Origin: Candidatus Latescibacterota bacterium
GTDB lineage: Bacteria; Latescibacterota; UBA2968
DNA length: 64,000 bases
Reading direction: 5' to 3'
Assembly (NCBI GenBank): GCA_965207885.1
Contig: OZ242311.1
Span: forward strand, 1,088,001 to 1,152,000
Made by a program: the position numbers and the translations under genes. Of this stretch, positions 8,750-64,000 are shown in pieces. A model generated the notes under the pieces. It was not told the DNA's origin. It saw nothing but the letters and a program-made list of their open reading frames with translations, and made no database searches. Each line of letters opens with the position of its first letter. The first letter of the stretch is position 1.

Positions 8750-11700
8750 ATGAAATACCTTTATTATTTGGTTTGCCTGTTGTTGATCGGGGTGCCGATC
8801 GCCTTCTCGCCCGCGGACGTATCGGCCGGGACGGTCGGCAAACTCAATGGTGTTGTGGCCGATGTCTCAGGCGCGCCATTACCCGGGGCCAACGTGGTGA
8901 TCCAGGGCACCCGCAGGGGTGCTACGACCGATGCAGAAGGCTACTTTCTCATCCTGTCGGTCGAACCCGGCAGGTATAAACTGGAAGCCTCGATGGTCGG
9001 TTATACCGCGGCGACCAAACAGGATGTGGTCGTGCAAGCGGATTTCACCACCACCGTCGATTTTAATCTGGTGGAGGCCGCGCTACAGGCCGAAGAACTG
9101 GTGGTGATTGCCGAGCGACCACCAGTAGAGCCGGACCGGACCTTCAGCCGTTATGTCGTCGATGCCGAGGACATCGAGAATGTGCCCCTTGCGCGCACCC
9201 TCGATGAGGTGATCGCGCTACAGCCGGGCGTGTCGCTGGACGGCAACCTCCGCATCCGGGGTAGCAACAATGCGTCTATGGCTGGCTCAAACGATACCTT
9301 TGTGGAGATTGACGGGGTTCGACTCGTCAACAATGACGGATTTGTTGCTCCCACCTGGATGGGCATCAACAAAAGCGCCCTGCAGGAAGTGCAGGTGGTC
9401 ACTGGTGGGATGGAGGCCGAGTACGGCAACGCTCAGGCAGGCGTGATCAGCCTGGTCACCAAAGAGGGCCGGGACGCCTATACGGGCTTTGGGGAATACC
9501 GCCTGGACCTGCCGGCCAAGAGGCACTGGGGACCGAATATCTACGATCATCCCTTCCACGCAGGCAAGGTGGATTGGAGTGACCCGGCCTTTACGAACGA
9601 AACCGATCCCGAGACCGGGCGCAAGGTGCATGAACGCACCGACTACACGGGCGTGTTCGGGCACTATTTGGAAGGTTCGGCCTCTGGACCGATCGCTAAG
9701 GATGTCTCCTTCTTTGTGAATGCGGCCCACAGTCGCAAGGCCCCCATCTATCCCAGCGCGCTCAACCGCGAGCCACTCAATATCCAGACTTTCGGCAACT
9801 TTGTCACCCGACCATCTTCCAACTTCAAGGTTAAGTTGGGCGGGGTGTTCGCCTATTACGAGGGTTTCGATCCCGGGACCAGAGGCAGCAGACGAATTGG
9901 AGGGTCTAATACGAGGATCGATCCCGATGATCCCTTCGCTGGCCAGCAGCTAGATACCGACGGGGGTGTGCGGGGTATCACCAGGGGCGGGCGCAATCTT
10001 TTCCTGCCCGAGGGCCACTCTGCAGCTGGCAAACAGAACTTCAGCGAAAGGATGGCGTATCTCCTCTTTACCCATACCCTATCCCCCACGACCTTTTATG
10101 AGGTGCGTCTCAACTGGCAGCAAACCCTGACCGATACCAGCGATGTGCCTCCTGTGACCGAAGGTGTGCGACGCGACAGCAAGGGGTACTTCCTGCCGAG
10201 GGATATCTACTCCTTTAAGTATATGGATAACAAGCGGGTGCGCATCAAAGCCGATCTGAGCAGCCAGATCACCAAGGGACACTTTGTCAAAACCGGGTTT
10301 GAGATCACCCGCTACGGCCTCTACCACCACGAGGAGGGCTCCCGTCAGGCCCGCGCTTTTACGATCCGTCTTGCCGGCGGTCCGGGCGACCCGATCATCG
10401 GTATGGAGCGGGCCCATCCCATCCAGTACGGGGTCTATATCCAGGACAAGATGGAGTTTGAGGGCCTGGTGATCAACGCCGGTATCCGGTTCGACGCAAT
10501 GGACCCGGTAGAGGGCTGGCGCAATATCGCCACGCTCTGGATGTTCAGACACTACGAATCCCTGACGCGCTTTCGGAATATGCCCGTAACCGAAGACCTC
10601 CCCCTTTTGCACGCATGGAGTCCCAGGGTTGGAGTCTCTCACCCCATCACCGATCGCTCCACCATCCGGTTCTTCACTGGCGTCTTCCGGCAATTTCCCG
10701 ATATCCAGAATTTTTACCAGCGGGAATTCGGGGGGACAGGAGAGGACAGGGATGTGAACGGGAACGGACAGATCGATCAGATGGAGAAGTACAACAGCCT
10801 GAAGCAGTTCCACCACGCGGTCTCCGGGATGTCCGACATCGAGCCGGAAAAATCAACCAGTTTCGAGGCCGGGTTTGACTGGAACTTCGCCGGTAAATAC
10901 GTTGCCAGTGTCACCGCCTTTTACAGGGATCAGATGGGGATTATCACCAATGGCTCCACCTCCTGGCGCCTGGAGGAACCAGCTTTCGGGTACGACGGCG
11001 TCTCTTCAAGGGGATCCGGCAACCGGGGGCGGAAGTGGTCCCGGGGGTTCGAGGTCTCTCTGCGAAAGCAGTTCAGCAACATGGTCACGTTCAACGTGGC
11101 GTATAATCTTGCATGGACAAAAAATATGAATAACTCCGGCTTTCGGAACTGGCGAGCCTACCATGTGGTCGGGCCCTCATACGTCATGAGTGACCGATAC
11201 TTCGTGGGTGTGGATGCGCGGGCGGACGGGCAGGAGGTTCCTCACGCACCCACTCAGGAAGAGCGGGTGCAACTGGCCGAAAGGGCCAGGGCACAACTCA
11301 GGGATTACGATAGCCGAATCGGCGAGCCTCTGTCCGATGGCTACTGGAACGCCCCGGTGGAGATACTCGAGCCTGGGATTTATGCCTATACCATCGGCCG
11401 GTACAATACGCCGACATTGCAAAGCGGTATCGACCGGCGCAACATCCTCAGCGGGCAATTTCTTTTTTCCAGTCCCTCTGATTTTCACATTGCGCCCCTG
11501 GCCAGTCTTCGGATATCGTTGCTCTACCGGCTCCATACCGGTATTCCCTTCAATTATACGCCTCCCACAGGTCCCCAGGAACGACGGACCGGACCGATCT
11601 CTCTGGTTAGCGATATCAACCTGGAGAAGGAATTCTACATTGGTGGTGCTATGACAGCCACCGCTTTCCTGGAGATCCACAACCTCTGGAACGACAAGGC

Positions 11701-54978: not shown

Positions 54979-55055
54979 CGGAGCGTAGCGCAGCTCGGTA
55001 GCGCACCATCTTGGGGTGATGGGGGTCGCTGGTTCAAATCCAGTCGCTCCGACCA
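54979..55055 (+). tRNA. tRNA-Pro (GGG)
   Basis: CGGAGCG/CGCTCCG acceptor stem, anticodon arm CCATC-TTGGGGT-GATGG, GGTTCAAATCC T-arm, encoded CCA; 77 nt. Confidence 0.97.
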
Positions 55056-55266: not shown

Positions 55267-56310
55267 ATGTCGGACAATGATGCAACATATTTGGGATTTA
55301 CAGCGATATTCAGATTTATGGATTCTGAAGATAAATATATGGAGACTGTAGTCAAACGCGCAATTGATTCACGAAATAAGGTGTTACAAGAAACGCGAAG
55401 GTTACTCAACTCGGCTATACGCGAGTACATAAGAGTTGATGGGTACAAAAATACAGATCGCGCGCCAGTTCATTATCTCATGGAGCCTGTTCTGGAGGAG
55501 GAACGCGAGAGGAGGCCCAGGCGGGTGAAGCTGGAGAATCGCCTCTTGCCGCTCATAGACCGCATCGATCGGCTCATGAGCAAGTCTCCCATGCCGCCGA
55601 TAGAGGAAGAACAAGAATCCCCTTTTCCAGACGCGCAACAACTCGCTCAAGAACTCGATAATCAACGTGCGTTTTCCGATGACGATTACTCTTCTTTGCT
55701 ATCGGAGAATCAACATCTCAATGGCGAGATTGAATCGCTGCAAAGCCAATTGCACAAGCGTCAGGATGAGATGGAAAAGCTGCAAAAGGAGGCCGAGAGG
55801 TGGCGAAAATACTACATTGAGGAGGCGAGCAAGGAGGTGGCAACCACGGGTGAAGATGAGGACTTAGTCATTGAGAGCGTGAATGATGCTGTTGAGCTTG
55901 CCAAAGAAAGGTTCGACGATAAACTTTACTTCCAACTCAATGGGAAATCGCGCGTTGAAGATAACCCATTCAAGCATCCCAAAGCCGTGTGGGACGCACT
56001 ACAATGGCTGGCGACCACGTATTATGGGGCTCGCATGGGGAAAAACAGTCTAACAAGTCCCGATGTGTCCATTCGGAAAGCGTGTAAGTGGTGGTACAAG
56101 GGGCACCAGAGCGATATAACAATGAACAAGTACGAGGATTGGTACACCACTAAAATTGGTCACAAGACCCATTGGCTAAAAAAGCACATCGGAACGGGAA
56201 GCAGTAAGGATGCGCGCTATACCATTCGGGTCGCTTTTGATTGGGACAAGAGCAAGGAGCGCATCGTTATTGGATACATCGGTCAGCACCAACAGACAGA
56301 TGCGACATGA
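55267..56310 (+). CDS. Hypothetical protein: coiled coil plus putative RelE-like nuclease/toxin C-terminal domain
   Basis: RBS AAGGAGG; heptad region; C-terminus KKHIGTG..KDARYTIRVAFDWD....IVIGYIGQH. Confidence 0.6.
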   Translation: MSDNDATYLGFTAIFRFMDSEDKYMETVVKRAIDSRNKVLQETRRLLNSAIREYIRVDGYKNTDRAPVHYLMEPVLEEERERRPRRVKLENRLLPLIDRIDRLMSKSPMPPIEEEQESPFPDAQQLAQELDNQRAFSDDDYSSLLSENQHLNGEIESLQSQLHKRQDEMEKLQKEAERWRKYYIEEASKEVATTGEDEDLVIESVNDAVELAKERFDDKLYFQLNGKSRVEDNPFKHPKAVWDALQWLATTYYGARMGKNSLTSPDVSIRKACKWWYKGHQSDITMNKYEDWYTTKIGHKTHWLKKHIGTGSSKDARYTIRVAFDWDKSKERIVIGYIGQHQQTDAT

Positions 56311-56804: not shown

Positions 56805-57494
56805 ATGGATAAGCAGAAAATTTTGATTATAGGTCATGCAATCTATACTATGTCGGAGTTCATAAGATTCGTGATTGATGGCCCTCATGAAGTATTTGCT
56901 GCGCCTGATGGGCGAGAAGGGCTTGAAATTTTAAGGAGCGAGCAGATAGACCTTGCCATAGCCGAGATGTATATAGAGGACGTTGATGGGGTACACTTTG
57001 CGAAGCGCGTACGGGCAGAGAAAATTCAGACAGATATCTTGCTCAGGGCAAGGTCTGAATCTCTAAATTTGGACGAAGAAGTACGCAAGACAAGCGTAAG
57101 TGTGTTCCCCATTATGAGAGATAAATTTTTGGTGAAGATCAAAACGTCTATGTCTTCGCAATATCCGTGGAAAACAGAGTTGGAATCATTTCTGAATGAG
57201 AAATACTGCAATCCAGAGCTAAAATTTGACGACCTTATGGACCATTTCCTGTTCTGTAGATCCTATGGTTGCAAACTGTTTAAAAAACATCTTGGCAAGA
57301 CCTTCTCGGAAATATTGAGGGAGACGAGAGTTGCAAAGGCACAACAGTATTTGATAGAAGAACCGTCATTGCTGATCTATGAAATATCAGACAAATGTGG
57401 GTTTCGTGAACAAAAGCGTTTGTATGAGGCTTTCATTAAAGTACACGGTATTTCGCCTACTGAGTACCGAAGAAGAAATGTAAATCAGGACTAA
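56805..57494 (+). CDS. AraC-family regulator with atypical receiver domain
   Basis: APDGREGLEIL..EQIDLAIAEM....DG receiver-like region; LFKKHLGKTF..IYEISDKCGF....F.KVHGISPTEYR AraC HTH. Confidence 0.82.
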   Translation: MDKQKILIIGHAIYTMSEFIRFVIDGPHEVFAAPDGREGLEILRSEQIDLAIAEMYIEDVDGVHFAKRVRAEKIQTDILLRARSESLNLDEEVRKTSVSVFPIMRDKFLVKIKTSMSSQYPWKTELESFLNEKYCNPELKFDDLMDHFLFCRSYGCKLFKKHLGKTFSEILRETRVAKAQQYLIEEPSLLIYEISDKCGFREQKRLYEAFIKVHGISPTEYRRRNVNQD

Positions 57495-57648: not shown

Positions 57649-58827
57649 ATGGGTTTAGCCACCAAACAGCCTGAATCTGATCATGAGATCAAGCTAAAGG
57701 GCTTCGAGTTTATAAGATTCTTCATTCTGTCTATTATCGCATCGAGTATTCTGCTTATTGCAGGGGTTGTGATTTTAGGCTGGGATGTCGAAATGGAAAT
57801 TAGTGTTGAGGCGTCGGGGCACGTTGAACCCGTTGAGAAAAAATTTGTCAAATCAGAGACCGTGGGGACGATAGAGAAGGTGCTTATTCACGCGGGTCAG
57901 CAGGTCGCAAAAGGGGATACGCTTTTTGTTCTCGGTGCTTCAGAGTGGAGAAAAGAGGCCGCGAAAATAGAAAAAGAGATTGCAATTAATCAACGACAGA
58001 GAGAGGAACTCAGAGAGACATTATTTTTTGATCGGCAAAGGATAGAATCAAGTCTTGACCAGGCGCGGCTCGAACACGAAGCAAGCGGTCTTAGGCTTGA
58101 ACAGATTTTACAGGAGCAACAATTGTATCAAAAATATCTGAAAGAGAGAAAGGAACGGACACGACCTCTTGAGACGCTTTTACCTGTAAAACTTCAGGAG
58201 AACAATCTCAACCGTGTTCAGCAACGCATGACCTATCTGAAAATTGAGCGTGATGCTCTGGCTGTTAGAGAGAAAGAAATCCAAACTTTGAAACTGGTGG
58301 GGGATAAGCTCATGCAAGAACGCGATTGGATTCAGGAACAGATACGGAAAACCACCATCACTTCCCCAATCGCAGGTATTATTCTGACATCAGATATTGA
58401 GACGATTGAGGGCGATAGGGTTTCGGTTGGTAGTCCGGTATTGGAATTGGCGCAGTTAAATGAATGGCAGGCGAGGGTTTTTGTGCAAGAGGTGGATATT
58501 TCAAAAATTGAAATGGGTCAAGATGTCAAGTTGTACATCCATGCGTTTCCGCATATGAATTACAAAATTTTTAGTGGTAGGGTTAGCGAATTGCCCAGCC
58601 GGAATCAAGTCGTGCCTCCCAATGCAACGGCTCTGACATTATACCCGGTGAAGATATTGATCGATGAACCTTTTGTTCGCAGTGGTGATCAGGTCTATCC
58701 GGTGGCGTATGGCATGCGGTTAGATGCGAAGATCATTATTGAAAGAAATTTTTTATGGGAAATTGCGTGGAAAAAGATAAAAGAGGCTTTTGGTATCGTT
58801 GACAAGAAAAATCCGTTGGTTTTTTAA
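57649..58827 (+). CDS. HlyD-family membrane fusion protein
   Basis: N-terminal TM, GQQVAKGDTLF, coiled coil, ITSPIAG, DISKIEMGQ.V, YPVK, GM..DAKII. Confidence 0.88.
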   Translation: MGLATKQPESDHEIKLKGFEFIRFFILSIIASSILLIAGVVILGWDVEMEISVEASGHVEPVEKKFVKSETVGTIEKVLIHAGQQVAKGDTLFVLGASEWRKEAAKIEKEIAINQRQREELRETLFFDRQRIESSLDQARLEHEASGLRLEQILQEQQLYQKYLKERKERTRPLETLLPVKLQENNLNRVQQRMTYLKIERDALAVREKEIQTLKLVGDKLMQERDWIQEQIRKTTITSPIAGIILTSDIETIEGDRVSVGSPVLELAQLNEWQARVFVQEVDISKIEMGQDVKLYIHAFPHMNYKIFSGRVSELPSRNQVVPPNATALTLYPVKILIDEPFVRSGDQVYPVAYGMRLDAKIIIERNFLWEIAWKKIKEAFGIVDKKNPLVF

Positions 58828-58858: not shown

Positions 58859-60574
58859 TTGACGCAAATATTCACTATTGTTAAGATGCTGCGGCCTTAT
58901 TGGCGGTATATCATTCAGTCGCTTTGTGTTGGCATTTTGTTTATGTTGTTTCAGATACCAGGACCTTATTTCACGAAAATAATGATCGATGACGTATATC
59001 CGCATAAAGATTTCTCTCTGTTGAATTTTGTTCTGTTGTTGGGCATGCTGATGTCGTTGGGCGTGGGTGGGATGAGGTTTATCAGTGGGTATTTTGGTCA
59101 GTGTGTTGGCATCCGGATGGGATATGATTTTCAAGCGCGTTTTTACAAACATATACAAACGTTGGATTTTGGTTTTTTTGATAGCCGGGAGACGGGTGAA
59201 ATACTATCTCGATTTCGAGATATGCGAAGTTCAATTGCCAGTGTCATCAGTTTGATTAACACGCTGATTATCAATTCGCTCCAACTCCTAATTTTTCCGC
59301 CCATTCTGTTCTTTATCAATTGGAAACTGGCACTGATTAGCCTCACGGTCTTGCCCTTTGACACGCTGTTGGTTATGATTTCAAGGCGGTTTATACGCAA
59401 ATATACAAGAGAAGTTGCAGAACGCTCAGCAGAGTTATCGGCGAAAAATTACGAGTCCATCTCTTCAATTAGAACAGTACAGTCTTTGGGGTTGGAGGCT
59501 TCATTTTTTCAGAAGCTACAGGGATTGTTCATCGGTGTGGCAAATTTGAGAATGAAAGTGTCGCTTTTTTCGGGCACAACGGGATATGCCAGCACCATTA
59601 TCAAGACAGGCGGAACACTTGCCTACGGCTTCTACGGATGGCACGAGGTGTTATCTGACAATTTGACGTTGGGAAGTTATATGGCTTTTACGGGCTATGT
59701 GGGGTATTTGTATGGACCCATAAAAAGTCTCATTGGCCTGTTGCGGCGCATCGAATCCACGCTGGTTCATACGGACCGCTTTTTTGAAGTCTATAATATC
59801 ACGCCTGACATACGCGATGAACCGCAGTTGGCTGAACTCAACGGGGTTCGTGGAAGGATAGAGTTTCGAGATGTCAATTTTGCATATCAGCCCGAAAGGG
59901 TGGTGTTGAACGAGATCAATCTCGAGATTGACGCTGATCAGACAGTAGCTATTGTTGGAAGAAGTGGGTCGGGCAAATCTACCCTGGCAAAGCTCATTCC
60001 GAGATTTTACGATCCAGTGGATGGTCAGGTCTTGATCGATGGGGTCGATATCAGGCAATACCGTCTCAATTCTCTGCGCCAAAATATCGGCTTTGTGATG
60101 CAAGGCAGTGCGCTGTTTCAGGGGAGTATTTTGGAGAATCTGACGTTTAACAAACCGATTTCCCTGATCGATGTCGAAGCCGCAACCCGGGCAGCCTATA
60201 TCCACGATTTTGTCACGCGGCTACCCAAAGGTTATCACACGATCATCGGTGAGCAGGGGGCGCAACTTTCAGAGGGGCAAAAGCAGAGGGTCGCACTTGC
60301 ACGAGTGCTACTACAGAACACACCCATCTTGATTTTGGATGAACCCACTGCGGCACTGGATAACGAGTCTGAGTTTTATATTCAAGAAGCGATGAAGGAA
60401 ATTTGCAAACAAAGAACAGTGATCGTCATTGCCCATCGTCTGTCAACCATCCGGCGTGCAGACAAAATCGTGGTCATCGACCAGGGAAGAATTGCTGAGG
60501 AAGGCAGCCACGAGGTTTTGATGCTGCAAGATGGTGTTTATTCCATGCTCCAGGAGCGAGCCGCGAGGATTTGA
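58859..60574 (+). CDS. ABC exporter (TMD plus NBD), no C39 peptidase domain
   Basis: FFDSRETGEILSRF.D, GRSGSGKST, LSEGQKQR, ILDEPTAALD, IAHRLST. Confidence 0.92.
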   Translation: MTQIFTIVKMLRPYWRYIIQSLCVGILFMLFQIPGPYFTKIMIDDVYPHKDFSLLNFVLLLGMLMSLGVGGMRFISGYFGQCVGIRMGYDFQARFYKHIQTLDFGFFDSRETGEILSRFRDMRSSIASVISLINTLIINSLQLLIFPPILFFINWKLALISLTVLPFDTLLVMISRRFIRKYTREVAERSAELSAKNYESISSIRTVQSLGLEASFFQKLQGLFIGVANLRMKVSLFSGTTGYASTIIKTGGTLAYGFYGWHEVLSDNLTLGSYMAFTGYVGYLYGPIKSLIGLLRRIESTLVHTDRFFEVYNITPDIRDEPQLAELNGVRGRIEFRDVNFAYQPERVVLNEINLEIDADQTVAIVGRSGSGKSTLAKLIPRFYDPVDGQVLIDGVDIRQYRLNSLRQNIGFVMQGSALFQGSILENLTFNKPISLIDVEAATRAAYIHDFVTRLPKGYHTIIGEQGAQLSEGQKQRVALARVLLQNTPILILDEPTAALDNESEFYIQEAMKEICKQRTVIVIAHRLSTIRRADKIVVIDQGRIAEEGSHEVLMLQDGVYSMLQERAARI

Positions 60575-60575
60575 T

Positions 60576-60905
60576 ATGTTTTTTGATATGCTTAAAGCAA
60601 AGTGCCCAAACTGTGGATATAGAAACGATTGGGAAGGATCATTTAAATGGTTTAATCCCCCTCGCACCTGGCCCTGTAAGAAATGTGGCATCATGCTTGA
60701 AATGGATCGCAGGAGAGGATTCCTCGTGCTGCTCATATATGCGGCATTCTGGTTATTTTTTGAGTTATGGGTCAAGGATTGGAGCTTTCTTGTCTATTAT
60801 CTCCTGCCGGTTGGCATTCTCATCATTCTTTCATTGAAGCGCGTTAAAATTGTGCAATCTTCAGACCAAAATTCTGATGCTGATAACCCCAAAAGTGCCG
60901 TTTAA
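60576..60905 (+). CDS. CxxC-x20-CxxC zinc-ribbon membrane protein A
   Basis: CPNC-x20-CKKC then two hydrophobic helices; RBS GAGG. Confidence 0.75.
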   Translation: MFFDMLKAKCPNCGYRNDWEGSFKWFNPPRTWPCKKCGIMLEMDRRRGFLVLLIYAAFWLFFELWVKDWSFLVYYLLPVGILIILSLKRVKIVQSSDQNSDADNPKSAV

Positions 60906-60938: not shown

Positions 60939-61274
60939 ATGTTCAAAGCAAAGTGCCCAAATTGTGGATATAACCGCCCGTGGGAGGAGTATAAATGGTG
61001 GACCTGGAAACCTGGCCTCACCTGGCCCTGCAAGAAATGTGGCATCATGCTTAAAGATGATCTAAGAAGGTCGTTCTTGCTGCTACCAATATTCGTGGCT
61101 TTCTGGTTGTTTTTTGAATTCTGGGTCAAGGATTGGAGCTTTCTTGTCTATTGTCTTCTGCCAGTTGGCGTTTTTATCATTCTTTCATTGCTGCGCGTTA
61201 AAATTGTGCAATCTTCAGACCAAAATTCTGACGCTGATAGTCAAAAAGCACCTCTTGACAAGGAAAGGGGGTAA
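60939..61274 (+). CDS. CxxC-x21-CxxC zinc-ribbon membrane protein B (tandem duplicate of A)
   Basis: CPNC-x21-CKKC; long nucleotide stretches identical to A. Confidence 0.78.
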   Translation: MFKAKCPNCGYNRPWEEYKWWTWKPGLTWPCKKCGIMLKDDLRRSFLLLPIFVAFWLFFEFWVKDWSFLVYCLLPVGVFIILSLLRVKIVQSSDQNSDADSQKAPLDKERG

Positions 61275-61358
61275 ATGAGAGATCGCTACATGGTGCTTTG
61301 TTCATAGTGAATGGAAAACATTCACAGATTTCTAATTTTTACAGTATTGGAGGATCAC

Positions 61359-61769
61359 ATGCAAAAGCTGGTAAAAAGAAAGATGCATTACGAGACCATT
61401 ATGCCCGTAGAGGCTTATGAGGAAGAGAATAATAACAATGATGATTGGACGGAGGATCTAGTTAGTATTGGTATCACTTTTTTGGGGGCAGTCACTGGAT
61501 TCGTAACTAGAAACCCTTGGGTAGGAGCTGCTGTTGCTAGTGTTGGTATCGGACATACCGTCGCGAATAATGAAGAAATGATGGAGGGCATAACCGCGGG
61601 AATTCATGCCCAGACAGAAGCTGATTTGCAAATGGCTGATGCTGCATTAAATGCAGTTAATAATGCATATAATAATGGCGCACAGGCTATTACAGATGCA
61701 TATATAGATTGGACTAGTGACCTTGACATTGACTACGACGACCCACTCGTACAAGCATATGGTGAATAG
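61359..61769 (+). CDS. Putative bacteriocin/RiPP precursor with CLI_3235-like leader, 136 aa
   Basis: ATG after GGAGG; leader MQKLVKRKMHYETIMPVEAY; acidic Cys-free core with Gly/Ala hydrophobic hairpin. Confidence 0.65.
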   Translation: MQKLVKRKMHYETIMPVEAYEEENNNNDDWTEDLVSIGITFLGAVTGFVTRNPWVGAAVASVGIGHTVANNEEMMEGITAGIHAQTEADLQMADAALNAVNNAYNNGAQAITDAYIDWTSDLDIDYDDPLVQAYGE

Positions 61770-61873
61770 GGAGTGACAAAGTTAGGAGGCATCTTGATGA
61801 TTGCAGGTATTGTACTTCTATATTGAGTGCAATACCTGCTAAATTTTCTCATCCAAGATGGAGGACCAAAAAT

Positions 61874-62191
61874 ATGCCAATGAACTTAAAAAACATTTAT
61901 TCCTGTCCAAAGTGTGGACATCCTGTGGGAAGGTGGCGCAAATTGAATGCCGGTATTTTTAGCCAATGGCCCTGCAAAAATTGCGGTACTCTCTTGAAGG
62001 TTACTTACTGGAAAGGTATGATTTTTGTTTCTATAATCATCTTGTTAATCTACTTATGGATTACTCCTCAGAGAACTATTTTGGATATTCAGCTATTAAT
62101 CTTAGGCTTGATCATATTTGATATTTTAGTAAAAATGTTTATCAGTCCGATTATTGAGAAAAGTCCACGTCAAAAGCCTGATTCTGAGTGA
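61874..62191 (+). CDS. CxxC-x19-CxxC zinc-ribbon membrane protein C
   Basis: CPKC-x19-CKNC plus two TM helices; RBS GGAGG. Confidence 0.75.
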   Translation: MPMNLKNIYSCPKCGHPVGRWRKLNAGIFSQWPCKNCGTLLKVTYWKGMIFVSIIILLIYLWITPQRTILDIQLLILGLIIFDILVKMFISPIIEKSPRQKPDSE

Positions 62192-62210: not shown

Positions 62211-62516
62211 ATGCCAATGAACTTAAAAAAAATTTATACCTGTCCAAAGTGTGGTCATCCAATTGGATGGCGTCGCAGATTGAGTGCTAACATCTTTAGT
62301 ATATGGCCCTGCAAGAATTGCGGTACTCCTTTGGGTTTTGGTTCTGTGAGACGCCTGATTTTAGTTTCTATAGTTACCTTGTCAACCTGGTTATGGCTTA
62401 AACCTCAGGTGAATTTTTGGGTCTTTCTGGTAATCTTTGCATCGGGATTGTTCGTTGCAGGATATGCCGATCCGGTTGTAGAGAAGCAGGAACCACAGCG
62501 GCCTGATGCAAAGTGA
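62211..62516 (+). CDS. CxxC-x19-CxxC zinc-ribbon membrane protein D (paralog of C)
   Basis: MPMNLK.IY.CPKCGHP..WPCKNCGT shared with C; RBS GGAG. Confidence 0.75.
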   Translation: MPMNLKKIYTCPKCGHPIGWRRRLSANIFSIWPCKNCGTPLGFGSVRRLILVSIVTLSTWLWLKPQVNFWVFLVIFASGLFVAGYADPVVEKQEPQRPDAK

Positions 62517-62557: not shown

Positions 62558-64000
62558 ATGAAATACAAATGCAATTTTCATGATCTAAGCGGAGAGGGTG
62601 TCAAGGTTGCAATTATTGATAGCGGGATTGATCGTTCGCATGAAGTGTTGCAGCATGTGACCGCAGGAATCTGTTTTGAGTTTTCTGAGGGTAATGTCCT
62701 TACGTCCCAAGACTATCGAGACTCATCTGGTCATGGCACGGCGGTTGCGAGTATTATTAAAAAGAAGGCTCCGGGTACAGAGCTATATGCTATAAAAATC
62801 TTCGATCAATCTTTAATTGTAGAACAAAAAATTCTCGTTGAGTCCATTCGCTGGGCAATTGATCAGAATGTCGATATCATCAATCTGAGTCTTGGGACAA
62901 CGGACGCGCAGGTCAAGCATGCTCTATTGGATATATGCAAGGTGGCAACGAAAAAGGGTATCGCAATCGTCGCTGCCGAACACAATTCAGGACAAGAGAG
63001 TTATCCCGCCTATTTCTCCAATGTGATCGGTGTGAAGGCGGGGGAGATAAAAGGGCGTTACAATTATCTGTTTCGCGCAGGAGAGTCTATTGAATGTATC
63101 GCACCTGGAACAACGCAGCGCGTTCTCTGGGCAGGGGGGCGAGAGCATATTGTTGAAGGCAGTAGCTTTGCTGCGCCCCAAATTACGGGTATTATCGCTT
63201 TAATCAGACAGGCTTTTCCCAAAGCCAATCTGGATGAGATTAGAAACATATTGGAGGCGAATGCCAGTCGAGAAGTGCAGCAAAAAATCCCTTCAGGTCG
63301 CAAGATTCGCTTGCCTACCCCCCAAACGCCTCAATCCTTTGATCCAAACAAAATCAAAAGAGCAGCTATTTATCCCTATAACAAAGAAATGCATAGCCTA
63401 ATGCGTTTCAGGGAGTTGTTAAAGTTTGAAATTGTGGGTATCGCTGATCCCATTGCCAAAGGTTATGTTGGGAAAGATGCTGGTGAAGCGATAGGCATAC
63501 CGCCGGTTGGCATACGGGTTCAGCCGCGATTTCAAGAGATATTGAAAGAGGCTGATACACTCATTCTGGGCTATGTAGATGAACTGAGTCGAATTACTAA
63601 AAAGAATGTCCTGCGCGAGAGTATTGAGAAAGCCATTGATGCCAACTTAAATGTGTTCAGCTTTTTGTCCGTTTATCAGAAGGATTTGAGAGATCTGATC
63701 GATAAGGCTCGTAAAAAGAACCTCTGGATTTATTCGCCTGACGTTCATCAAAACGATCTGCTTAAAGCACTTCAGCCCCACAATAATCCAGCCGTTGATG
63801 TGCCAGTTATCGGTGTTTTTGGCACGAGTGCTCAACAGGGTAAGTTCACTGTTCAACTCGCCTTGAGGTCAAAGCTGATAAAAGAGGGATATAAGGTTGG
63901 GCAAATCGGCACCGAACACCATTCTCAGTTATTTGGCATGGATGTGGCATTTCCAACGGGCTACGCCTCTCCACTGCAATTTCCAATACAACTTCACGCG
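62558..64000 (+). CDS. S8 (subtilase) peptidase fused to a DUF1611-like P-loop domain; runs off the window end and is missing from the ORF track
   Basis: Manual translation: VAIIDSG, GHGT, INLSLG, GSSFAAP catalytic triad motifs; then YPYNKEMHSL..RF and PVIGVFGTSAQQGKFTVQL..GQIGTE. Confidence 0.88.
   Translation, partial: MKYKCNFHDLSGEGVKVAIIDSGIDRSHEVLQHVTAGICFEFSEGNVLTSQDYRDSSGHGTAVASIIKKKAPGTELYAIKIFDQSLIVEQKILVESIRWAIDQNVDIINLSLGTTDAQVKHALLDICKVATKKGIAIVAAEHNSGQESYPAYFSNVIGVKAGEIKGRYNYLFRAGESIECIAPGTTQRVLWAGGREHIVEGSSFAAPQITGIIALIRQAFPKANLDEIRNILEANASREVQQKIPSGRKIRLPTPQTPQSFDPNKIKRAAIYPYNKEMHSLMRFRELLKFEIVGIADPIAKGYVGKDAGEAIGIPPVGIRVQPRFQEILKEADTLILGYVDELSRITKKNVLRESIEKAIDANLNVFSFLSVYQKDLRDLIDKARKKNLWIYSPDVHQNDLLKALQPHNNPAVDVPVIGVFGTSAQQGKFTVQLALRSKLIKEGYKVGQIGTEHHSQLFGMDVAFPTGYASPLQFPIQLHA

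Follow-up and report, generated by a model that had tools for sequence, protein, structure and literature searches.

The closest described relatives of the locus reported here belong to the CLI_3235/CcpM system, in which a precursor peptide (TIGR04065) is accompanied by the radical S-adenosylmethionine (SAM) enzyme CcpM (TIGR04068), a TIGR04066 protein, a protein related to acyl carrier proteins (ACP; TIGR04069) and an S8 protease. The annotated CLI_3235 precursor on a Clostridium pasteurianum plasmid (precomputed Pfam family PF27803) starts M-K-L-L-G-K-K, carries E-T-I-E-A-Y before its Cys-rich core, and adjoins genes for CcpM, a TIGR04066 protein and an S8 protease. SacP23 of Paenibacillus polymyxa is described from a cluster with TIGR04068, TIGR04066 and TIGR04069 genes, an ABC transporter and a subtilisin (PMC10731318), and its precursor is listed with the start M-R-K-L-V-K-R and the leader end D-T-I-E-A-F (PMC10731318 Table 2). 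Few papers mention CLI_3235, TIGR04065 or TIGR04066 in the literature searched, and the same literature contained no published work linking DUF1611 to the maturation of ribosomally made peptides that undergo modification after translation (RiPPs). Two papers there mention DUF1611 at all, with titles on subjects other than peptide maturation, and an 11-residue string from the leader described below had no match in the text searched. We analysed a precursor gene within a 64,000-nucleotide stretch of DNA (the window) from a Candidatus Latescibacterota bacterium (assembly GCA_965207885.1, contig OZ242311.1, positions 1,088,001 to 1,152,000). The system to which it belongs is a long-cargo branch, without the radical-SAM enzyme, of the S8-DUF1611/TIGR04066 maturation systems, whose known relatives of the CLI_3235/CcpM type process short Cys-rich peptides. 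In our judgement the gene product is probably a precursor, matured in a leader-guided manner, from which a strongly acidic helical-hairpin protein is exported; most likely this protein is a microcin-like toxin used in antagonism.

Parts of this layout are familiar from other systems. Class II microcins and double-glycine-leader bacteriocins combine a short-leader precursor, an exporter made of an ABC transporter and a membrane-fusion protein, a hydrophobic Gly/Ala-rich product and adjacent small membrane immunity genes. Polymorphic toxin loci, such as contact-dependent inhibition (CDI) and Rhs loci, pair an unvarying N-terminal part for delivery with a C-terminal part that varies, and carry swappable toxin/immunity cassettes. 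BtrI and BtrH of butirosin biosynthesis carry out carrier-protein-dependent acyl transfer. In the maturation of the quinohemoprotein amine dehydrogenase gamma subunit (Qhp), the account of QhpC, QhpE and QhpF indicates that leader removal from a protein ahead of ABC export can be the work of a cytoplasmic subtilisin (PMC7876137).

The precursor gene and the elements that adjoin it are the following.

61359..61769, forward strand: precursor gene with a 136-aa product (P0001); the stop codon ends at 61769
61359..61418, forward strand: leader of 20 codons, MQKLVKRKMHYETIMPVEAY, (near-)invariant across 54 sequences
61419..61769, forward strand: variable cargo with an acidic N-end, a hydrophobic Gly/Ala-rich hairpin at residues 34-65, a long amphipathic acidic helix and the C-terminal motif D-D-P-x-V-Q-x-Y-G-E
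61259..61358, forward strand: conserved upstream region of 100 nt, with a GGAGG ribosome-binding site (RBS) at 61349-61353 and a 7-bp inverted repeat (61307-61313 and 61319-61325)
61803..61839, forward strand: terminator-like hairpin with a 14-15-bp stem 3' of the stop codon, found by terminator scan; right border of the swappable cassette

The RBS is separated by a 5-nt spacer from the ATG at 61359. An alternative ATG stands upstream at 61311, in frame with the precursor open reading frame (ORF). Because the 52 database relatives in the alignment all begin at MQKL, and because loci L008 and L009 carry a 1-nt indel within the stretch holding ATG 61311, 61359 is taken as the true start, in agreement with a preliminary description of this DNA. 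That description had also depicted a basic 20-aa leader in front of a 116-aa core devoid of Cys and Lys, with a single Arg, acidic ends and a hairpin, and each of these points was borne out. The leader contains 3 K, 1 R and 1 H. The core, free of Cys and Lys, counts 1 Arg, 12 Asp and 9 Glu, is acidic at both ends, and shows small-xxx-small patterns within its hydrophobic hairpin. An AlphaFold2 model of the precursor from a 54-row alignment was unusable (mean pLDDT 47.8) and yielded only a helix pattern at residues 29-50, 53-70 and 72-121. Judged from its sequence, the leader is unstructured.

The precursor represents a real gene family built as an invariant 20-aa leader followed by a hypervariable 100-140-aa cargo. 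A word-based search of 5.8 billion proteins returned 61 candidates, of which 54 were relatives at E<=0.01, and the alignment analysed (n=54) comprised P0001, its paralogue in the same genome and 52 database matches, with P0002 (P0001 as read from the upstream ATG) and P0015 excluded. Thirteen columns are invariant (M1, Q2, K3, L4, K6, Y11, E12, I14, P16, E18, A19, Y20 and E23), and twelve of them lie within residues 1-20. Over the 1431 pairs, identity is 0.91 in the leader (minimum 0.80) and 0.33 in the remainder (0.13 to 0.98). The division between leader and core had been placed after E-A-Y; it falls exactly there both in protein conservation and in the DNA, and the E-A-Y itself is retained by every homologue aligned. 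The cargos differ in sequence and keep a common character. All 54 cores have a net charge between -16 and -24, 31/54 are free of Cys and 26/54 free of Lys. A conserved Trp sits within an acidic stretch, two short hydrophobic Gly/Ala-rich segments come next, and a long amphipathic acidic region follows. An H-[DNHT]-E motif is found in 43/54 members, and the C-termini fall into classes ending ...YGE (29), ...LH/VH/LN (14), ...GG (8) and other (3).

The family is small: when its profile was run with HMMER against 1.84 billion representatives, only 27 proteins came up at E<=0.001. Twenty-three of these are family members starting MQKL, two lack the N-terminus and two are Kelch-repeat proteins. A second leader variant among the 23 keeps M-Q-K-L, K6, Y11, T13, P16 and V-E-A-Y. 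The pattern M.KL.K.{6,12}EAY, put forward in the preliminary description, matched exactly the precursor and its paralogue in 9.08 million six-frame residues of the genome, with 0 matches in each of 3 shuffles. A sequence search of the PDB with the family profile also gave Kelch proteins, namely designed ones (SAKe, E 1.5e-15) and KEAP1 (E about 0.01-0.2), all at profile positions 17-49. A Kelch relationship was rejected: the family junction V-E-A-Y-x-P-E-D-D-x-W (profile residues 17-48, window about 61407-61502) mimics the Kelch blade motif V-E-A-Y-D-P-x-x-D-x-W, which is judged a chance likeness over a short motif whose score is inflated by summing over repeats.

The cargo behaves as an exchangeable cassette, bounded on one side by the leader and on the other by either its own conserved C-terminal motif or the conserved 3' hairpin. 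In related loci the genes around the precursor are close to the window copies (ABC 94-96%, S8-DUF1611 90-93%, ACP 92-93% and BtrH-like 85-91% identity, with HlyD at about 91% in three of the four related loci carrying it and 36% in the fourth); the precursors are only 39-45% identical, and the zinc-ribbon transmembrane (ZnTM) proteins range from 24 to 96% and vary in copy number. A DNA alignment of seven loci covering the upstream 100 nt, the leader and the first core codons has a mean column identity of 87%. Similarity collapses directly 3' of the Tyr20 codon (last base 61418) and resumes at the conserved C-terminal coding motif or at the hairpin 3' of the stop. The hairpin at 61803-61839 has a fold z of -3.74, with 0/200 shuffles equally good, and is kept after 6/7 precursors whatever the cargo, with one compensatory change of G:C to A:U. 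In the genome it occurs only at the two precursor loci, apart from one partial look-alike. Replacement was also seen in metagenome runs from three different studies. One 7.4-kb contig of run X9 matches the window to 61418, carries 413 unrelated letters in place of 61419-61826 and matches again from 61827. A joint in run X5 leads from 61418 to 61727, and contigs of run X13 diverge at 61426 and rejoin at 61724.

A paralogous cluster (L007, C1:1038000-1057000) lies about 100 kb upstream, outside the window, with near-identical exporter genes, the same leader and a different 138-aa cargo. It continues with genes for a CPBP protease, a GT2 glycosyltransferase, a second BtrH-like protein, a DUF2059 protein, S8-DUF1611, ACP and a BtrH-like protein, the last of these being split by a frameshift (L007 15199-15765 and 15615-16256). 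Eroded copies were found as well. In L012 (10001-10462) the precursor runs in frame into the tail of a CPBP gene, and only fragments of the enzyme genes are left; L029 (1501-1852) has a precursor broken in two and no longer has the enzyme genes. A CPBP gene comes after both intact cargos that do not end in YGE (ownB and L010; 2/2), and a CPBP fragment after the chimeric L012; 5/6 YGE cargos are accompanied by ZnTM genes only. These loci are kin, so that comparing cargo class with immunity type is no test of association. In L009, where a full but more divergent cluster comes first, a 94-aa piece of the ABC gene 3' end (99% identical; 9301-9582) abuts the cassette on its upstream side and resembles a scar left by recombination.

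In all complete loci the enzyme genes have remained neighbours of the precursor. The cluster in the window (cluster A) runs in the order tRNA-Pro, a 347-aa protein without family, a receiver-AraC regulator, HlyD, ABC, ZnTM1-2, precursor, ZnTM3-4, S8-DUF1611, ACP and BtrH-like. The genes expected to act on the precursor or its product are listed below.

62558..64000, forward strand, ending at window-equivalent 64475: S8 protease-DUF1611/TIGR04066-like fusion, 638 aa, cytoplasmic
57649..58827, forward strand: HlyD-family membrane fusion protein (TIGR01843 type_I_hlyD, E 1.5e-23, below cut-off)
58859..60574, forward strand: ABC exporter, permease plus ATPase, without an N-terminal C39 peptidase domain (TIGR01193 positions 148-706 of 708; HlyB model 137-691 of 694)
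About 60576-60905 (start uncertain) and 60939-61274, forward strand: ZnTM1 and ZnTM2, tandem zinc-ribbon proteins with two transmembrane (TM) segments (CxxC...CxxC plus two hydrophobic segments; weak TIGR04104)
61874-62191 and 62211-62516, forward strand: ZnTM3 and ZnTM4, zinc-ribbon plus TM proteins (TIGR04104 E 1.7e-5 and 1.6e-4, below cut-off)

The fusion protein matches Peptidase_S8 (E 7e-32), DUF1611 (E 5e-12) and TIGR04066 (147 bits, E 7e-43, profile positions 1-360 of 361; cut-off 200). The best named match of its S8 domain is QhpE, at 143.8 bits and below the cut-off of 165. This part has no pro-domain or signal sequence, its residues 10-238 align to chain positions 21-247 of subtilisin BPN', and D21, H59, N143 and S203 are invariant in 6 sequences. 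Beyond the window, 3' of S8-DUF1611, follow genes for an 89-aa ACP and a 346-aa BtrH_N-like protein. The carrier protein matches TIGR04069 at 20 bits against a cut-off of 70, and true ACP models score higher. Searches of the listed ORFs of the cluster gave no CcpM/radical-SAM family match (NCBIfam, Pfam) and no QhpC-like gene (NCBIfam). Judged by sequence, the maturation genes are clearly homologous to those of the CLI_3235 system. Structure prediction of the BtrH-like protein from a 6-row alignment was unusable (pLDDT 37.2) and no catalytic residues were assigned; for the complex of S8-DUF1611 with precursor residues 1-45 the prediction gave a score of 0.01 and a mark of 0.32, which points in neither direction.

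Compared with the CLI_3235/CcpM system, the locus likewise has a DUF1611/TIGR04066-type protein, a carrier gene, a subtilisin-type protease and an ABC transporter beside the precursor, and its leader shares the length of 18-20 aa, the M-x-K-L-x-K-K/R start and the E-A-Y/F end. It differs in having no radical SAM enzyme, in a cargo of 100-140 mostly Cys-free residues as against about 30-40 Cys-rich ones, in the fusion of S8 with DUF1611, in the presence of a HlyD partner and a BtrH-like gene, and in a leader that fails TIGR04065. With class II microcins it has in common the short leader, the ABC plus HlyD exporter, the Gly/Ala-rich segments and the small membrane genes adjoining the precursor. 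Unlike them it has no GG in the leader, its ABC protein lacks the C39 domain (the match starts at position 148 of the 708-position bacteriocin_ABC profile), cleavage is assigned to the separate S8-DUF1611 enzyme, carrier-protein genes are present and the cargo is strongly anionic. The constant N-terminus and variable C-terminus, the putative protection genes that vary beside them, the copies in decay and the abrupt borders of recombination recall polymorphic toxin loci, but the constant part here is only 20 aa and probably removed, and export would be by an ABC exporter and not a large filament or secretion needle. As in butirosin BtrI/BtrH, the ACP gene is directly followed by a BtrH_N-like gene, a pair also present on a Bacillus mycoides megaplasmid; here the match is below the Pfam cut-off and the substrate would be a protein, not an aminoglycoside. 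As in Qhp maturation (PMC7876137), the substrate is protein-sized, with an N-terminal leader that a cytoplasmic subtilisin-like protease would take off ahead of ABC export. The S8 domain best matches QhpE, and an AraC-type regulator is nearby. Unlike Qhp, the QhpE score is below cut-off, there are no QhpD radical SAM, QhpG or dehydrogenase subunit genes, and the cargo is hypervariable where the Qhp subunit is conserved. What is new in the present system is a cargo that is long, free of Cys and hypervariable, together with the HlyD-type exporter and cassette borders that are precise to the base.

In the mechanism that we propose, the leader would be the handle for the adjacent cytoplasmic S8-DUF1611 enzyme, whose S8 subtilisin domain would cleave behind V-E-A-Y, placing Tyr at P1, Val at P4 and the invariant Glu at P3'. 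This site is suggested because a hydrophobic P4 and an aromatic P1 fit the classical preference of subtilisins; the subtilisin pro-peptide itself ends ...H-A-Y. The HlyD/ABC pair, without a peptidase domain of its own, would export the product. The variable ZnTM proteins are candidates for immunity, and they, or in some loci a CPBP protease, would protect the producer; CPBP/Abi-type proteases are known in the role of bacteriocin immunity proteins. The probable task of ACP, the DUF1611 domain and the BtrH-like protein is to attach a carrier-bound group to the cargo, perhaps at its new N-terminus, which would be the sole primary amine in 26/54 cores. This last step is the weakest of the scheme, and for such carrier-dependent modification related systems offer a single hint, the failure of Edman sequencing described for SacP23 (PMC10731318). 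A fuller version would have S8-DUF1611, ACP and the BtrH-like protein form a leader-guided protein maturation machine that cuts after Tyr and transfers a carrier-bound acyl or aminoacyl group onto the new N-terminus of a 100-140-aa cargo, yielding toxins of a new class, N-capped, anionic and membrane-active, whose cargo and immunity genes recombine at the leader junction and the 3' hairpin; we consider this version doubtful.

The leader was also viewed against those of other S8-DUF1611 systems. On the B. mycoides megaplasmid (L016, NZ_CP036025.1, 447468-464541) an S8-DUF1611 fusion is 33% identical over its full length (E 2e-97) and a BtrH-like gene 30% identical (E 5e-41). Also encoded in this module are a carrier protein, an ABC transporter, a DUF692 protein and its partner, and a pair of 44-aa Gly/Cys peptides that have a related leader and are identical but for one residue; the module looks like a variant with DUF692 in place of the radical SAM enzyme. 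A metagenome scan with the DUF1611 alignment gave 129 confirmed relatives, and 80 were kept as loci, at least 62 of them with the S8-DUF1611 fusion. The 35 loci with the nearest enzymes mostly have an ACP (22), HlyD in 9 and a CcpM-like gene in 1; among the 45 distant loci CcpM is found in 18 and HlyD in none. A profile search that took only the two plasmid peptides as seeds brought together 21 small Cys-rich peptides, drawn from 15 loci, and these S8-DUF1611-linked leaders read M-K-K-x-L-x-K-P ... hydrophobic-x-L-Y, often followed by x-x-E. Three distinct loci of the near group encode cargos of roughly 95-110 aa behind 20-23-aa leaders ending in Tyr, and one such leader aligns ungapped to family residues 1-25 with M1, K3, K6, I14, Y20 and E22-E23 identical (hhalign P 0.011). 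Set post hoc beside the leader pattern of this class (17-24 aa, M-[KR]-K-x-L-x-K start, aromatic end, often x-x-E), the family has a same-strand S8-DUF1611 neighbour, the leader start M-Q-K-L-V-K-R, Y20 and the invariant E23. The leader appears to resemble those of S8-DUF1611 systems in length, first seven residues, aromatic P1 and P3' Glu; homology is not demonstrated.

Several results weigh against our interpretation of the gene as a toxin precursor within this group of systems. We infer the toxicity of the cargo from its architecture alone. No Pfam family reaches threshold for the cargo (best TcdA_TcdB_pore, 12.9 bits against 27), an ESM Atlas search gave a best score of 0.80 and no lead, and so strongly anionic a cargo is unusual for membrane-active bacteriocins. 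Against TIGR04065 (curated cut-off 26 bits) the leader was not recovered, the precursor having 0 NCBIfam families at E<=1, and a phmmer search with the C. pasteurianum leader placed the precursor and its paralogue at ranks 609-1379 of 118,778 ORFs. The 21-leader profile, which was built without the precursor family, left the precursors absent among 481 genome-wide matches at E<=1000 and gave the isolated N-terminus 4.5 bits (the variant leader 9.7 bits); locally it ranked the precursor from 4 to 298 in 7/8 loci and first only in L028. L028 is also a counter-example in which the choice of CPBP or ZnTM does not follow cargo type, so that the two are not strictly tied. The BtrH_N match of the 346-aa protein is 25.3 bits against a Pfam cut-off of 29.7, and no candidate catalytic Cys is conserved in the BtrH-like protein.

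The preliminary description had seen in the precursor a CLI_3235 (TIGR04065) leader moved onto a pore-forming bacteriocin of the glycine-zipper kind. Part of this stands: the M-x-K-L-x-K-K/R and E-A-Y/F motifs are common to the C. pasteurianum plasmid precursor and SacP23, a TIGR04066-like domain, an ACP and an S8 protease are encoded here and in the CLI_3235 system alike, and the hairpin has small-xxx-small patterns. The class assignment does not. Since the leader fails TIGR04065, for which the C. pasteurianum plasmid precursor as positive control scored 29.3 bits, and two unbiased sequence/profile tests, it is not a TIGR04065 member; the pairwise BLASTP with the C. pasteurianum leader, a single comparison, reached only E 0.01, and its rank across the genome lies at about 600-1400. 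Scanned in six frames with TIGR04065 at E<=10, the genome gave matches at two other places and at neither precursor locus, with the same null in a relative's genome, and a search seeded with the C. pasteurianum CLI_3235 precursor found only itself. Short proteins sharing words with residues 1-40 were only 7 truncated copies of the same family and 0 CLI_3235 peptides. The cluster has no CcpM radical-SAM gene and the 116-aa core is Cys-free. The likeness to glycine-zipper bacteriocins and pore-formers is likewise not supported by homology or fold: no such Pfam family reaches its gathering score, and across the 54 members Pfam gave scattered sub-threshold matches only (HlyE 4, TcdA/B pore 2, neurotoxin translocation 2, delta lysin 2, diphtheria T 1, plus unrelated families). 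We regard a transplanted CLI_3235 leader on such a bacteriocin as very improbable.

The same machinery might instead export a protein that is no toxin: a secreted or membrane-inserted acidic protein for interaction with a sponge host, for signalling or for a surface structure, its variability being due to host or phage pressure. Type I secretion substrates, whose functions are many, are typically acidic, Cys-poor proteins that leave through HlyD/ABC-type systems, near-identical DNA comes mostly from runs labelled sponge metagenome, and no toxin family was detected. This is set against variable small membrane proteins that flank the variable cargo, a CPBP/Abi-type protease in some loci, eroded and truncated copies, and a patchy occurrence within the genus. 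Because of the variable flanking membrane genes, the eroded copies and the patchy distribution, an antagonism locus fits better than a housekeeping or symbiosis factor, and we think a non-toxic export product unlikely. A further proposal concerns the constant N-terminus, which may be an uncleaved export or assembly tag, or may be kept mainly, together with the upstream 100 nt, as a homology arm for cassette exchange, the enzyme genes acting on some other substrate. In its favour, the non-coding upstream 100 nt are conserved together with the leader codons, and no profile test ties the leader to the enzyme's other substrates. The leader is, however, constant at the protein level despite differing flanks, the second leader variant included, V-E-A-Y fits the classical subtilisin preference, the enzymes stay beside the precursor in every complete locus, and the island offers no further candidate substrate gene; an uncleaved tag or homology arm is quite improbable.

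Read as a leader-guided toxin precursor, the family bears on a wider group of enzymes. S8-DUF1611/TIGR04066 enzymes are widespread, and here the same enzyme set serves a protein-sized, Cys-free cargo with a dedicated HlyD/ABC exporter. A constant front end with swapped cargo is the usual bacterial layout of exported toxins. The constant leader, the cargo replaced at base-pair precision and the candidate immunity genes varying alongside make an unusually clean natural experiment. It renders testable the recognition and cleavage rule of the protease family, the DUF1611/ACP chemistry, and the use of such products by uncultured sponge-associated Latescibacterota against competitors.

Within its genus the family has a patchy, accessory, island-like distribution. 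The source genome is a single contig of 6.2 Mb, and the precursor family is present in 9/168 genomes of the phylum, all from one genus (the source genome and 8/20 others), with 0/147 elsewhere. A species-level genome collection gave 5 matches, all titled Candidatus Latescibacterota metagenome-assembled genomes (MAGs), and the source names of two database members are Candidatus Poribacteria and Gemmatimonadetes. Near-identical DNA turns up in runs of 11 studies, several under the label sponge metagenome, and no RNA run is among the 21 listed runs with such DNA.

The left part of the cluster comprises a tRNA gene and two further genes.

54979..55055, forward strand: tRNA-Pro(GGG), found by ARAGORN; likely left border of an island of about 10.8 kb
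55267-56310: 347-aa protein adjoining the tRNA, with no family match
56805..57494, forward strand: receiver plus AraC-type helix-turn-helix (HTH) response regulator (NCBIfam AraC-family/receiver matches, all below cut-offs)

A partial copy of the tRNA-Pro at C1:1153843-1153928, about 1.8 kb past the window end, covers 97 nt (the tRNA part plus 45 nt downstream) at 83.5% identity. As this copy directly follows the last cluster gene, it suggests that the whole cluster is an island of about 10.8 kb inserted at tRNA-Pro; no integrase was recognised in the 10.8-kb island. The receiver-AraC gene is kept upstream of HlyD in related loci. Upstream of the precursor, the perfect 7-bp inverted repeat GTGAATG-N5-CATTCAC (window 61307-61325) could be an operator for the AraC-type regulator; the RNA fold of the conserved upstream stretch was not significant (z -1.23). 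Just past the island, a second receiver-AraC regulator is split into two ORFs, one for the receiver and one for the HTH part (L006 10994-11218 and 11225-11695, window-equivalent about 65993-66694).

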